A program made the translations under genes and the position numbers. Shown here piece by piece: positions 52,417 to 64,000 of a stretch of 64,000 bases of DNA (position 1 is the first letter of the stretch; each line of letters begins with the position of its first letter). The notes below the pieces were generated by a model. It was not told where the DNA came from and did not search any database. It was given only the letters and a program-made list of their open reading frames with translations. The stretch is from Macrostomum lignano (lineage: Eukaryota). The stretch covers positions 321,974 through 385,973 of the forward strand of contig NIVC01000096.1 in the NCBI GenBank assembly GCA_002269645.1, in the 5' to 3' direction.

Positions 52417-52494
52417 CTGCAGCAAAAAGTTGAGTGGTAGTATTCACATTAGTACTATATTTTTATAAAATAGAGGCAGTGGGGAGAGCGCAGT

Positions 52495-52720
52495 ACACAT
52501 ATTGGTTCTACCAATAATACACACGGTTTTTCCATTGTCCCACACATATTGGTTCTACCAATAATACACACGGTTTTTCCATTGTCCCACACATATTGGT
52601 TCTACCAATAATACACACGGTTTTTCCATTGTCCCACACATATTGGTTCTACCAATAATACACACGGTTTTTTCATTGTCCCACACATATTGGTGCTATT
52701 AATAATACACAAGGTTTTTC
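52495..52720. repeat. 47-bp subterminal tandem repeat (about 4 copies) of the viral element
   Basis: Unit cacatattggttctaccaataatacacacggtttttccattgtccca, with an internal TATTGG-N5-CCAATA inverted repeat. Confidence 0.92.
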
Positions 52721-52834
52721 CACCACCTCACATATTGGTCCAGCTACAGTTGAGAAAATCTCCCCCCCCGTTCCACATTCCACACTGTCGCGTGCTTTTT
52801 TACACAGCAAGCTCTGGCTATTTTTAGCACAAGA

Positions 52835-53125
52835 CACACATATTGGGTGGGCCAATAATACACACGGTTTTTTCCTTCATTTCACACATATTGGGTGGGC
52901 CAATAATACACACGGTTTTTTCCTTCATTTCACACATATTGGGTGGGCCAATAATACACACGGTTTTTTCCTTCATTTCACACATATTGGGTGGGCCAAT
53001 AATACACACGGTTTTTTCCTTCATTTCACACATATTGGGTGGGCCAATAATACACACGGTTTTTTTCCTTCATTTCACACATATTGGGTGGGCCAATAAT
53101 ACACAGTTTTTCCTTCATTTCACAT
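52835..53125. repeat. 48-bp subterminal tandem repeat (about 6 copies), related to the 47-mer
   Basis: Unit cacacatattgggtgggccaataatacacacggttttttccttcattt. Confidence 0.92.
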
Positions 53126-53844
53126 TGAGATAACTCACAGTAAGCATCGAGAAGGCCCTGAAGTTCAGCCGCCGATGGAGGTCTTGTTGGGGGAGTCGGA
53201 TCTAGCCAATCTGCTGCATCCGTTTGCCACCACCTTTCGCTCCGAATCGTCCTAGAGTTGTCATGCAGGAATGTAGCCGAAACAGAGCAAAAGCGGAGCC
53301 GTGGAAGCTCGGTCACCAGAGTATAGATGTTATGGCGGGATTGCACGTGGTAGTAACTCACGCTGAATAGTTCCGCCAGGCTTGTTAATGTCTGCTGATG
53401 CCTCGTAATAAATTGGTCATACACTTTTCCAAGAAAAAATGCTGCCACCCAAGTTCGCCGGTTGTAAATTTGGCCCTGCTTAACCAGGTTTTCATGCAGT
53501 TCCGGCACCCCATTGTCAACAGGACCTCGGTTTGTGATGTCGTTGCAGATGGCTTCTAACTCCCCCTCACTAATGACCTCTGCCTGAGCCGCTTGCTCGT
53601 TCTCATATTGAAGCGAACTTCGAAGTTTATGGAATACATCCGTGGCTCTTTCCTTCATCTTCCGTATTTTCATTTCTTCACTGACTCGCAGATGCCTTTC
53701 TTCATCTTCAGATAATCTTTCCCAGAGTTCTCGAACCATGTCTTTAACTTCATCCTTATGCTCCTCAACAATAAATTGATCGATGGAATCGATAAAACCT
53801 GTGAGATCTTGCATGGTGATTCTGGCTGTAGTTGCATTAAACAT
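53026..53844 (-). CDS. Viral hypothetical protein (272 aa); the C-terminal ~30 aa read through the 48-bp repeats
   Basis: Uninterrupted non-repetitive ORF with an ATG in A-rich context, inside the element; mostly helical composition. Confidence 0.7.
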   Translation of the reverse strand: MFNATTARITMQDLTGFIDSIDQFIVEEHKDEVKDMVRELWERLSEDEERHLRVSEEMKIRKMKERATDVFHKLRSSLQYENEQAAQAEVISEGELEAICNDITNRGPVDNGVPELHENLVKQGQIYNRRTWVAAFFLGKVYDQFITRHQQTLTSLAELFSVSYYHVQSRHNIYTLVTELPRLRFCSVSATFLHDNSRTIRSERWWQTDAADWLDPTPPTRPPSAAELQGLLDAYCELSQCEMKEKLCIIGPPNMCEMKEKNRVYYWPTQYV

Positions 53845-53904
53845 TTTGTCTACAAATATATAAGTAGAGTGTTTTAAATAGTTTAGAATTAAAAAGCAAC
53901 TGAA

Positions 53905-53930
53905 AGTTACAGAAAATGGTTTCTGTAACT
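53905..53930. promoter_or_regulatory. Perfect 11-bp hairpin upstream of viral ORF 53844
   Basis: AGTTACAGAAA-atgg-TTTCTGTAACT; function unknown. Confidence 0.4.
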
Positions 53931-54225
53931 GTTGATTGTAAGTCAGGATTTACTTACGAAGATACGATGCGAGTTCGAGCGTCCGCTAGAAACAAATTTC
54001 TCCTATTTCTCCTATTTCTTTCAGCAGTCTGCCTATTTCTTTATTAGAAGCATGTAATACAAACCCCCCCCAGGAGAAGCATGGTGGAAAGAGAGATTGT
54101 AACCGAAACCAGTGTGCTCAAGACTGTACACTTGTGTGGAGAGAAGAGAAGCGAAGGCCAGAAGGCCAGAAAACTTAACTCTTCTCCCAAACAGCCGCTA
54201 ATCCAGCTGAATTTTCTTGCTTGAA

Positions 54226-61417: not shown

Positions 61418-61974
61418 CTATTCATTATCTGTGAGCTCCATTCTACGCATGATCTCAAACAAGTCGGTTGGATCACTTGTTTCCCTTGTGGTCTGTGGTG
61501 CCTCTTCAGCGTCAATGTTTTTGAGATTATGCAAGCGTTCAAGACGACCGATTCTTCTCACCGATTTCTGCCATTCGGTAAAAACTAAATCTACAAAGAC
61601 TTTAATTGCAGTAATTCTTACTTTGATTTGATCATGCAACGCTGTTGACTGAGTCATGAACTCTTCTAAATTCCTCACTTTACCTGTGTTGGTTGCGACG
61701 TTTTCTTTAATTCTATCATGCAATGCTGTTGACTGGTTCATGAACTCTTCTAAATTATTCACTTTAGCTGTGTTTGTGAAAACTCCTCCTTCAAGAATAC
61801 GCATCCGTCTATCAATGGAATTTCCAGAAGATTAACTGATGATCTCAAGCCGTTGATTAGCGAGACTATCGAAGTTATTTCTGACCTTAGTTCATTAGTT
61901 GCGTTTAACAACGGCACATAAAGCTTATCACTTTCAAACTTCTGCCTAGCTACTTTAAGCCTGAGATCTTCCAT
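61418..61974 (-). CDS. Viral hypothetical coiled-coil protein (two overlapping frames, 61759..61974 and 61418..61804)
   Basis: Contains an in-frame 28-aa duplication NT(A/G)KV(N/R)NLEEFM(N/T)QSTALHD. Confidence 0.5.
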
Positions 61975-62162
61975 GTTATTTGCAACTGGTGCATGGAGCG
62001 CTCTAGGCTTTCAGTCTGTTTTTATTCAGTTTGATCTCTGGGATCTCTTCGTCGCTGTTGATATATCGCCTGTCAAGGATGGATATTTGAGCTGATGTAA
62101 GAGCGCTGTTGCCAGAAATGGATTCACCTGCAAAGTTTATCGACATCTTTTAATAGCAAATT

Positions 62163-62961
62163 TTAAATTACAGTTCTTTTTTCTTTGCTGATAATCACAA
62201 ACTGGTAAGGCTGATTCCACTTGTCATAGCAAAGATTAACGAATTCCTCTTGTGAAATCTTTCTGCTTGAGTTTTTTGTTGGATTTATGAAATAGGCAGG
62301 CGCAATGACCTCATTGTAAAATCTTTTTAACCTGTCCTGTGGAATGGTTGGAAACAGGAGAATCAGATTGCAGTTCCCACGAATTGTTTTGTTCGGGAGC
62401 TCGAACCAGTTCTGTGCAATGTAAATTACATTACAATTGTTATGTCGCCCTCTTGTAAAATAGTTTTCTATCTGCTTCTGTGGGCCTGTCATACAATCAT
62501 CAAAGACGATCAAATGCTTTCTCCCTTTTCTAGCTCATCTGGTTGGGGTAGAAGTTTGGTCTTTGGATCAGCCTGTGGATCTCCATAGGTGAACACTTTA
62601 ATGTTCTGCCATTTTTCATTGTCTTTGAGGTGCTTTGATATTCAGCAGCTACAATTTCAGGGTTACTGGGAAGGCTCATTTGGTTATTAAAACATGCAAT
62701 AATGTCCTCTTTGTTCAGCTTGTTTTGAAGCCCTGCAATCAGCATTCTATACTCATCTTGATACAGTGTGGGAGAGTAGATGTGCAGAGTGTCATAGTCG
62801 ATAAAGCCAGGTCTAAGAAGCATGTTAAAGACTCTGAATGTTTTACCTGAACCTGATGAACCAACAACAATGCATCTGAAGTGACTCGGGATTGACTCAT
62901 GATGAGAAAACTTAATCTGATTACGCGTCCAGTGAGGATTGAAGTCGTTTGAAAAGTCCAT
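62163..62961 (-). pseudogene. A32/FtsK-like DNA packaging ATPase, frameshifted
   Basis: Walker A VVGSSGSGKT, YSPTLYQ, Walker B (KH)LIVFDD, RGRHNNCNVIYIAQ (Arg finger and Q motif). Confidence 0.93.
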
Positions 62962-63000
62962 TTTTTATATGAAAAAAAAAATTAAATAATAAATCATTTA

Positions 63001-63103
63001 GATGTGTCATTTCGGGACTTGAATGTGTCATTTTGGGACTTAGATGTGTCATTTTGGGACTTGGATGTGTTATTTTGGGACTTAGATGTGTCATTTTGGG
63101 ACT
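63001..63103. repeat. 21-bp tandem repeat x5 upstream of the ATPase gene
   Basis: Unit atgtgtcattttgggacttag. Confidence 0.9.
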
Positions 63104-63249
63104 AGTCTTATTCTCTACAATTCTTGTACCTCGGAAAGTACCTTTAGTCAAATTTGAAACCACTTCCTTTTTTAATGCTAGCTCTCATCTTCTCATAGAC
63201 TGCAGGGTCCACACTGTCTGGGTTTGGGGCCAGCGGGCCAGCGGGGCCA

Positions 63250-63880
63250 GTGGAGGTTGAATCTCTTGTTTAGGTGTTACAGTATCCTTTATCTTTTTGG
63301 CTGCTGTGGCTACACTGCCAGCCGCTTCGGCAACGTTCTTGATGTTCTCTTTGTTCTCTCCAATGACCTTAAAAATCTTAGCCCCTGAGCGATCAAATCA
63401 GCAAGGCCATTCCAGAGCGTTCTTTTCTTGGATAGTGGCCTGCAGGGAAAAGTCCAGATCCGCGTTTAATGAGATTAAGTTCCTCTTTGTCATAGTATTT
63501 GTCCAATGTCTTTTTCGAAAAATAAGAGGCATCTTTTTAAATAGATATTTATTTTTTGTTGAACCGCGAAAGCAGAAGCTCTCTCGCCCTCTTATCGAAT
63601 GTATTTTCTCTCAAGCATTTTGTCCAGGATGTTGACAAATTCTTTTCTATTTTCATCTTTCATTCCGGTCTTTGCGCCGCTCCTAGAAGAACCGCTACTC
63701 GCTTGTAGATTTCAGAAATTCCTTTTCCAGTTGAGGGCGGTTGGTCTTGGGGTTGTGGAGTTGGTTGGGCTTGTAGCTGCTGGGAGGTGATGCAAAAGAC
63801 TGCTCACTTTCAGAGATGGAACTGTCATGTGGTGCCTGTCTTTGTTGAGGTGTGAAAACTCTTTGATTGATTCTATTCAT
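63250..63880 (-). pseudogene. Fragmented viral hypothetical ORF(s)
   Basis: Cross-frame segments KRVAVLLGAA-KTG-MKDENRKEFVNILDKMLERKYI and GLADLIAQG-AKIFKVIGENKENIKNVAEAAGSVATAAKK look like Polinton-type virion/accessory proteins; not confidently identified. Confidence 0.35.
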
Positions 63881-64000
63881 TCGATCTGGAGAGTGTTTTC
63901 TAAGCGTTGCCAGTCTGTTGGGTTTTGTTTTTATATTCAGCTACTTTCAAAGGGTCTAACTGCTCGAGTTGACTGAGTACTTGTTCTTCTGTGAAATTTG

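Follow-up and report, generated by a model that had tools for sequence, protein, structure and literature searches.

A probable divergent Polinton of the flatworm Macrostomum lignano, covered in part and with many genes broken as written

Gene content of the element

We analysed a window of 64,000 nt from contig NIVC01000096.1 of Macrostomum lignano (GCA_002269645.1, positions 321,974-385,973, forward strand), and all coordinates below are positions in this window. Its right-hand part, from 52433 to the window edge, carries a cluster of genes that probably belongs to an integrated Polinton (Maverick). The features of the window are collected in Table 1. In 53150-64000, 13 stop-free runs of at least 130 aa were found, compared to a mean of 0.36 and a maximum of 3 in 200 shuffles, and the gene start is preceded by an A-rich run in seven of the eight genes inspected. 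Pfam was run on 25 segments, and the curated cut-offs were applied. Genes for a phospholipase A2 (PLA2), an integrase, a pX-like protein, PolB, an adenain-like protease and an A32-like ATPase are all present in the order and on the strands given in a preliminary description of this DNA, and that gene cluster is borne out by Pfam matches, catalytic motifs and the count of open reading frames (ORFs) against shuffles. The same description had read the cluster as near-complete intronless ORFs. The gene set is indeed present, but only ORF1, PLA2, integrase and the pX-like gene are clearly whole and open from start to stop, whereas PolB carries 8-9 frameshifts and the minus-strand genes are fragmented. 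The earlier list of minus-strand genes also lacked two, the broken genes at ~63144-63536 and 63549-64000.

Table 1. Features of the window, with the element from left to right followed by host genes
Feature	Position	Strand	Basis
Putative left terminal repeat: AGT-rich end and two related tandem arrays	52433-53124	.	Repeat analysis
ORF1, 272 aa, unbroken; N-terminal helices and possible C-terminal ParB/KorB-like helix-turn-helix (HTH) domain	53026-53844	-	Relatives, structure model
Parvovirus-type PLA2, 149 aa, unbroken	54226-54675	-	PF08398 (Phospholip_A2_4) E 1.9e-13; Ca-loop and HD motifs
Retrovirus-like integrase, 345 aa, unbroken	54706-55743	+	Pfam rve E 2.4e-8 (above cut-off); D73-D132-E167
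Adenovirus pX-like protein, 154 aa, unbroken	55760-56224	+	Adeno_PX E 4.7e-7 (above cut-off)
Protein-primed PolB (pPolB), broken	56348-60206	+	Relatives, motifs, frame-aware alignments
Adenain-like maturation protease	60260-60793	+	Peptidase_C5 E 3.6e-4; adenain 1avp E 0.0071; H51, D69, Q99, C106
Helical-hairpin protein with central hydrophobic stretch, ~3 pieces (2 frameshifts)	60665-61315	-	3 relatives, fold matches
Coiled-coil-like protein, ~3 pieces	61418-62146	-	Pfam scan without family, codon model
A32/FtsK-like packaging ATPase, three pieces	62163-62961	-	Pox_A32 E 2.1e-3; Walker motifs
Broken small gene, basic amphipathic stretch and GSG motifs	63144-63536	-	Codon model
Broken, unassigned gene that runs in from outside the window	63549-64000	-	Codon model
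Host homeobox gene, intron-split, with 20-bp x 94 array	1324-5395	-	Pfam Homeodomain
Host mitochondrial NAD kinase NADK2, exons unbroken	20006-26733	-	Main exons 93-99% identical to M. lignano records
Host zf-C4H2 (ZC4H2-like) gene, (GATA)159 array in intron	41560-46829	-	Domain and repeat scans

In the left module, PF08398 is the only Pfam match of the PLA2 ORF, in which no pX domain was detected, and weak matches to VP1 of adeno-associated virus were also observed (E 0.012-0.06). The arrangement of Alphadintovirus PLA2X, a PLA2 with a C-terminal pX, was not found, the pX match lying in a separate gene on the opposite strand. The sole PDB match of this pX-like protein is a PX chain at E 6.6, and the protein is a probable virion core or membrane protein. 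PLA2 and integrase start head to head over 30 AT-rich bases (54676-54705), which suggests a shared bidirectional promoter.

For PolB, the unbroken C-terminal piece (59191-59940) recovered 453 relatives among 1586 candidates (best E 4.5e-76), and in the best 120 of these the identity reaches ~54% at most, with a median of 49%. Named relatives come from Elysia (sea slug), Exaiptasia (sea anemone), Macrosteles (leafhopper), Rhizophagus (fungus) and Lithocolla (protist). Eight of the nine motifs tested were found in order, with ExoII interrupted, and the Cys/His of a vOTU domain were found at motif level only, at 57135 and 57474, in common with 76 and 77 of 87 relatives, respectively. A vOTU domain with Cys and His belongs to Polinton PolB as defined in PMC11161782. 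An Endonuclease_7 match within PolB (E 3.2e-5) points to an EndoVII-like insert; such an EndoVII/HNH insert was rejected as a novelty, since it is carried by 74 of the 87 relatives. Two short frames upstream of PolB, at 56348-56714 (+), carry the similar motifs RDLVNKY and RNLVNKY. They may form the N-terminus of PolB or else a small gene of their own, and a comparison with the N-termini of PolB relatives gave no homology. In the variable exonuclease region, an AAACTC-based tandem array (57748-57813) lies within PolB at the first broken zone.

The PolB probably represents a divergent Beta-adintovirus-like class. Its pieces match DNA_pol_B_2 (PF03175) at 16 and 21 bits, below the cut-off of 25.8, and of nine full-length relatives, four score 56-71 bits on this family and five do not match it, consistent with Beta. 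Betadintoviruses are marked by a divergent OTU-PolB, less than 30% identical to the PF03175 type, with moderate matches to phage PolB (PMC8502044). A phage PolB search with the window PolB, however, gave no match, and the class is only inferred. In a quick PolB tree, for which 37 of 121 rows were kept, the window copy formed a long branch with no supported sister.

The open frame of the protease continues into the opposite gene, so that its 3′ end is uncertain. This opposite gene (60665-61315) encodes the hairpin protein, for which three relatives at 47-50% identity were found among 49 candidates. The model of one relative (pLDDT 59) shows a long helical hairpin round a hydrophobic stretch, and a BFVD fold search with it gave two significant matches, both uncharacterised iridovirus proteins (E 1.5e-5 and 3.9e-4). 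In the Atlas, a hairpin relative (P0121) falls into unnamed clusters of Mollusca, Nucleocytoviricota and Preplasmiviricota. These model-based matches indicate a family shared with iridoviruses. GasderminX, the name first given to this gene, denotes a homolog of the gasdermin C-terminal domain that usually comes with a pX-like domain (PMC8502044). Adeno_PX was absent from the three window pieces as well as from three full-length relatives. A gasdermin was likewise absent from Pfam, from the PDB profile search (three matches, E of at least 0.98) and from a PDB fold search (none at E of 0.001 or below), the model having a pLDDT of 59 and published GasderminX sequences not forming part of the comparison. 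The label was therefore dropped as unsupported, because no pX or gasdermin match was seen and the pX-like domain resides in a separate gene (55760-56224).

In the ATPase, the motifs GSSGSGKT and LIVFDD, which we take to be Walker A and a Walker B-like motif, are located in two different pieces. A 21-bp array of five units at 62998-63103 lies just upstream of the ATPase start and is possibly a promoter repeat. The gene at 63144-63536 had no database match, and its product is possibly a virion core or membrane-lytic protein.

In Polintons, an RVE integrase inserts a linear genome bounded by terminal inverted repeats (TIRs), with target duplication, pPolB replicates the genome by protein priming, the ATPase packages DNA and the protease matures virion proteins. 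Accepting these roles, the integrase would insert the present element as a linear TIR-bounded genome. Its replication by pPolB would be protein-primed, and release of the terminal protein would fall to the vOTU domain. The ATPase would package the DNA and the protease would mature virion proteins, while PLA2 might serve membrane passage together with the pX-like and the hydrophobic hairpin proteins. The copy as written cannot make polymerase or ATPase. PolB, integrase, an Ulp1/adenain-type protease and a packaging ATPase together define a Polinton (PMC11161782, PMC8502044), and the gene set found here agrees with both definitions. Our data indicate, with a probability of roughly 0.88, that 52433-64000 is the left 11.5 kb of an integrated Polinton of M. 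lignano (Polintoviricetes, adintovirus-like, probably of the Beta/group-1 PolB class).

Several observations weigh against this assignment. Double or single jelly-roll capsid genes were not found in 52433-64000, where the element runs off the window edge, and neither a right TIR nor a target-site duplication was found within the window. Peptidase_C5 scores 20.7 bits, just short of its cut-off of 21.3, the Pox_A32 match is also below cut-off, and the Beta class is tentative. Two other possibilities, a non-autonomous element that is truncated or has no capsid genes and a contig chimeric between foreign viral and flatworm DNA, would account for the lack of a capsid gene in 11.5 kb, for the imperfect (AGT)2 end, and for an exact look-up of six open frames in the protein collection that returned zero matches. 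Against them, capsid genes are the usual companions of protease, ATPase and pX-like genes, and a terminal-repeat-like structure lies exactly at the junction with host repeats. The 11.5 kb also leave room for capsid genes, because typical elements are 13-25 kb long (PMC10748475). These alternatives therefore seem improbable, and in a Polinton the capsid genes would lie to the right of 64000. A second or inverted copy of the element was not found within the window, and no Rfam match was observed in 50000-64000.

Left terminus and ORF1

The terminus is a degenerate AGT-rich motif at 52428-52441, in which the canonical (AGT)2 end is imperfect. It is followed by two related tandem arrays, of 4.9 units of 47 bp (52495-52722) and 6.1 units of 48 bp (52835-53124). 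Of the TIR-like repeats described earlier, the two arrays stand, but neither an inverted partner nor a right end of the element was found within the window, and the terminus proper consists of the degenerate motif only. The arrays lie directly downstream of ORF1, whose last residues extend into the 48-bp array. They share a common core and differ in their palindrome spacers. Ten perfect TATTGG-N5-CCAATA palindromes are spread over the two arrays, and no further site of this kind occurs in the window. Directly left of the element, 18-bp, 81-bp and 119-bp tandem arrays (48032-52208) show no similarity to it.

ORF1 has six matches in 1.84 billion representatives. Five of these are credible, at 29-35% identity, and the sixth, a repeat protein (P0126), was dropped as spurious. 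The structure model of ORF1 (pLDDT 81) comprises an all-helical N-terminal half with long helices and a C-terminal helical domain. Most rows of a wide structural search were generic matches to the N-terminal helices, but in the same search residues 105-212 were matched by KorB 1r71 (Z 6.1, rmsd 3.3, 92 aligned) and by Spo0J (Z 5.9, rmsd 2.6, 83 aligned). In a second structural look, 11 of the top 23 rows were DNA-binding domains of ParB, Spo0J, KorB, Noc or SopB (Z 4.7-6.1, rmsd 1.8-4.7, 70-98 residues aligned, 6-14% identity). This likeness is only a lead, because all matches fall below Z 8. Foldseek gave no match to ORF1 at E of 0.001 or below. Several HTH families of Pfam matched one ORF1 relative weakly, whereas the ParB family matched none of six members of the ORF1 family, and an N-terminal ParB CTPase domain was not detected. 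Searches of PHROGs, phages and plasmids with ORF1 gave no match, and the Atlas placed it in unnamed clusters only, at 0.90. Max was rejected as a relative, its PDB profile matches being at E of at least 0.07.

A homodimer of ORF1 was predicted with a score of 0.39, compared to 0.01 for the best control, with interface residues 2-53. The mark for this score is reached by 21 of 30 known dimers and by none of 23 monomers, and in animals by 7 of 16. Contact agreement between the runs was at least 58% and pLDDT at least 53; one of the three runs scored 0.01. ParB, Spo0J, KorB and Noc proteins bind palindromes as dimers. ORF1 would resemble their domains in a putative all-helical HTH domain of its model, over the 70-98 aligned residues. 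Unlike them, it is only 6-14% identical in sequence, is without a detected N-terminal CTPase domain and has its predicted dimer interface at the N-terminus.

From these models it is possible that ORF1 is a dimeric HTH protein with operators at the end of the element, but a role for a host CCAAT-binding factor is just as likely. As a dimeric HTH protein, ORF1 would bind the palindromes of the terminal arrays and thereby regulate the element's end. On the other hand, the palindromes might be sites of a host CCAAT-binding factor or have no function, with the target of ORF1 elsewhere, a reading to which we give an even chance. Each palindrome amounts to two CCAAT boxes in inverted orientation, and such boxes are linked to factors of the NF-Y/NFI type. 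Furthermore, 5-7% of shuffled array units also hold such a palindrome, the palindromes of the two arrays count as one event because the arrays share ancestry, and the ORF1 fold matches are as low as described. Against this reading, four of the six differences between the array units (40 nt) sit in the 5-nt spacer (post hoc P 0.0008). In addition, a palindrome of this type occurs in none of the 23 other tandem arrays tested in the window, and the gene adjacent to the arrays is ORF1. The most far-reaching proposal would be that an animal Polinton lineage encodes a dimeric ParB/KorB-type HTH protein that recognises a palindromic operator array in its terminal repeat, as a self-encoded terminus-binding or repressor system, and that the M. 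lignano copy is intact behind assembly errors and belongs to a live Beta-class provirus family. Taken jointly, these claims appear unlikely. Literature searches combining Polinton, ParB and helix-turn-helix, with most subscription journals outside the search, turned up only prokaryotic elements. To our knowledge, the recognition of Polinton ends and the silencing of the provirus are hardly understood. ORF1 is the one unusual trait of the element, and its possible pairing with the palindromes is the part worth following and, if true, bears on both.

Decay or assembly error in the broken genes

PolB contains 8-9 frameshifts in all ten frame-aware guide alignments, and 80 of the 85 frameshift events over these alignments are in one direction. 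An in-frame stop is absent in seven of the ten. With substitutions assumed at 10 per frameshift, 4.5 stops would be expected in PolB (P(<=1) = 0.06), and at 5 per frameshift 2.2 (P = 0.35). With a codon model trained on the open frames of this element, about two frame switches were counted in the gene of the hairpin protein, in that of the coiled-coil-like protein and in that of the ATPase, with 5-6 more across the genes in 63144-64000. The four left genes are free of breaks over their 2670 nt, against 7.1 expected at the PolB rate (P 0.0009). The M. lignano assemblies in the literature rest on PacBio data, and 32-64% of their bases are error-free (PMC5730564). The direction bias and scarcity of stops in PolB and this modest base accuracy speak for consensus error. 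We consider it about even odds that most breaks are consensus errors of long-read assembly rather than decay.

A number of findings speak against assembly error. Outside PolB the direction of the frame switches is mixed. Breaks at homopolymers (4 of 9, against a background of 0.29) show no clear enrichment. The host NADK2 exons in the same window have no frameshift, and the PolB frame is interrupted by one stop near 56712, ahead of the part covered by the alignments. Moreover, 11 of 172 conserved PolB columns (6.4%) are changed, a level reached by 1 of 40 intact relatives in leave-one-out and by 8 of 40 without close kin, and so at the high end of intact relatives. The breaks could accordingly be real and the element a provirus that has decayed and died, as is the rule for Mavericks; in vertebrates, 96% of their loci are degraded (PMC8097293). 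We regard this as a serious contender at a little under even odds. The bias of the PolB frameshifts to one direction and the almost complete lack of stops in this gene do not fit it well, and the lesions are not uniform as plain decay predicts, because the four left genes are break-free. These four genes lie side by side, and about 20 frame switches follow in 56348-64000. That contrast might also mean that decay struck the genes for replication and packaging, whereas the left module (ORF1, PLA2, integrase and pX-like) was kept intact by selection or renewed through recombination with a younger copy. Such a history seems quite improbable to us, as a local drop in consensus quality yields the same pattern and the codon model behind the count was trained on the same open frames. 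If the breaks are assembly errors, natural transcripts and linear extrachromosomal copies could conveniently be sought in M. lignano, a stem-cell model that is cultured and transgenic and has a piRNA pathway.

Known elements and the host flank

Among known systems, the Beta adintoviruses (Betadintovirus, Eupolintoviridae, Amphintovirales; Starrett et al. 2021, PMC8502044) share with the element an animal host, an rve integrase, adenain, an FtsK-like ATPase, an OTU-PolB weak on PF03175 and a pX-like gene. In contrast, the gene order of the M. lignano element departs from the Beta map labels examined and ORF1 is extra. Its PLA2 stands alone, whereas PLA2X with fused pX is characteristic of Alpha modules (PMC8502044); no gasdermin domain was shown, and capsid genes are unseen within the window. 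Vertebrate Mavericks (Barreat and Katzourakis 2021, PMC8097293) resemble it in intronless core genes, two inward-pointing modules, accessory ORFs beside the TIRs and an AGT-type end motif. They differ in that here integrase, PolB and protease are on one strand and the ATPase on the other, and the end motif is imperfect.

Our literature searches for Polintons or Mavericks of Macrostomum, with most subscription journals and Repbase outside the search, surfaced only unrelated work. Contigs with the prefix LFJF01 presumably belong to another M. lignano assembly. Jeong et al. 2023 (PMC10748475) found pPolB1 linked to an integrase at 748 loci, spread over 8 of 73 flatworm genomes, and their supplement has 78 rows on NIVC01 contigs (M. 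lignano Mlig_3_7) and 175 on LFJF01 contigs. These group 2 elements (Tables S2/S3) share the host species and the linkage of PolB to integrase with the present locus, but were obtained with nematode queries and a 900-aa ORF filter, whereas this PolB is divergent and its longest open piece has 371 aa. The locus is not among them, because they are group 2 with PolB ORFs of at least 900 aa, a filter that it could not have passed; its PolB class is probably absent from the set too. The main text of two M. lignano genome papers (PMC10733133, PMC5730564) makes no mention of Polinton or Maverick. Orthopolintovirales insertions in a rhabditophoran flatworm are described in a preprint (10.1101/2025.04.19.649669). 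An undescribed lineage, as first proposed, thus finds support in the PolB identities given above, but flatworm Polintons are already published and low identity is normal for invertebrate Polintons. What we describe is a divergent Polinton family of a well-known kind, partly seen and largely broken as written, and it adds one such family to a host for which Polintons of another PolB group are already tabulated. In a planarian, Polintons are piRNA-silenced and become active in differentiating cells (PMC8532177); by analogy, the M. lignano element likely shares this fate.

To the left of 52433, the window is rich in repeats (72 tandem-repeat rows) and carries a homeobox, an NAD kinase and a zf-C4H2 gene, all with introns. 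Two named M. lignano proteins match one NADK2 exon at 100% and 99% identity, the next match being at 55%, and because of this 99-100% identity we assign the host to M. lignano, a free-living flatworm. An invertebrate host for the Polinton or adintovirus, as previously suggested, is thereby upheld. The homeodomain encoded at 1324-5395 resembles that of Dbx. Five telomere-like GGGTTA units at 10505-10534 abut a 23-bp array, and one 15-bp repeat unit occurs as two inverted arrays, at 33693-34269 and 37437-37609, which are 3.2-3.6 kb apart.

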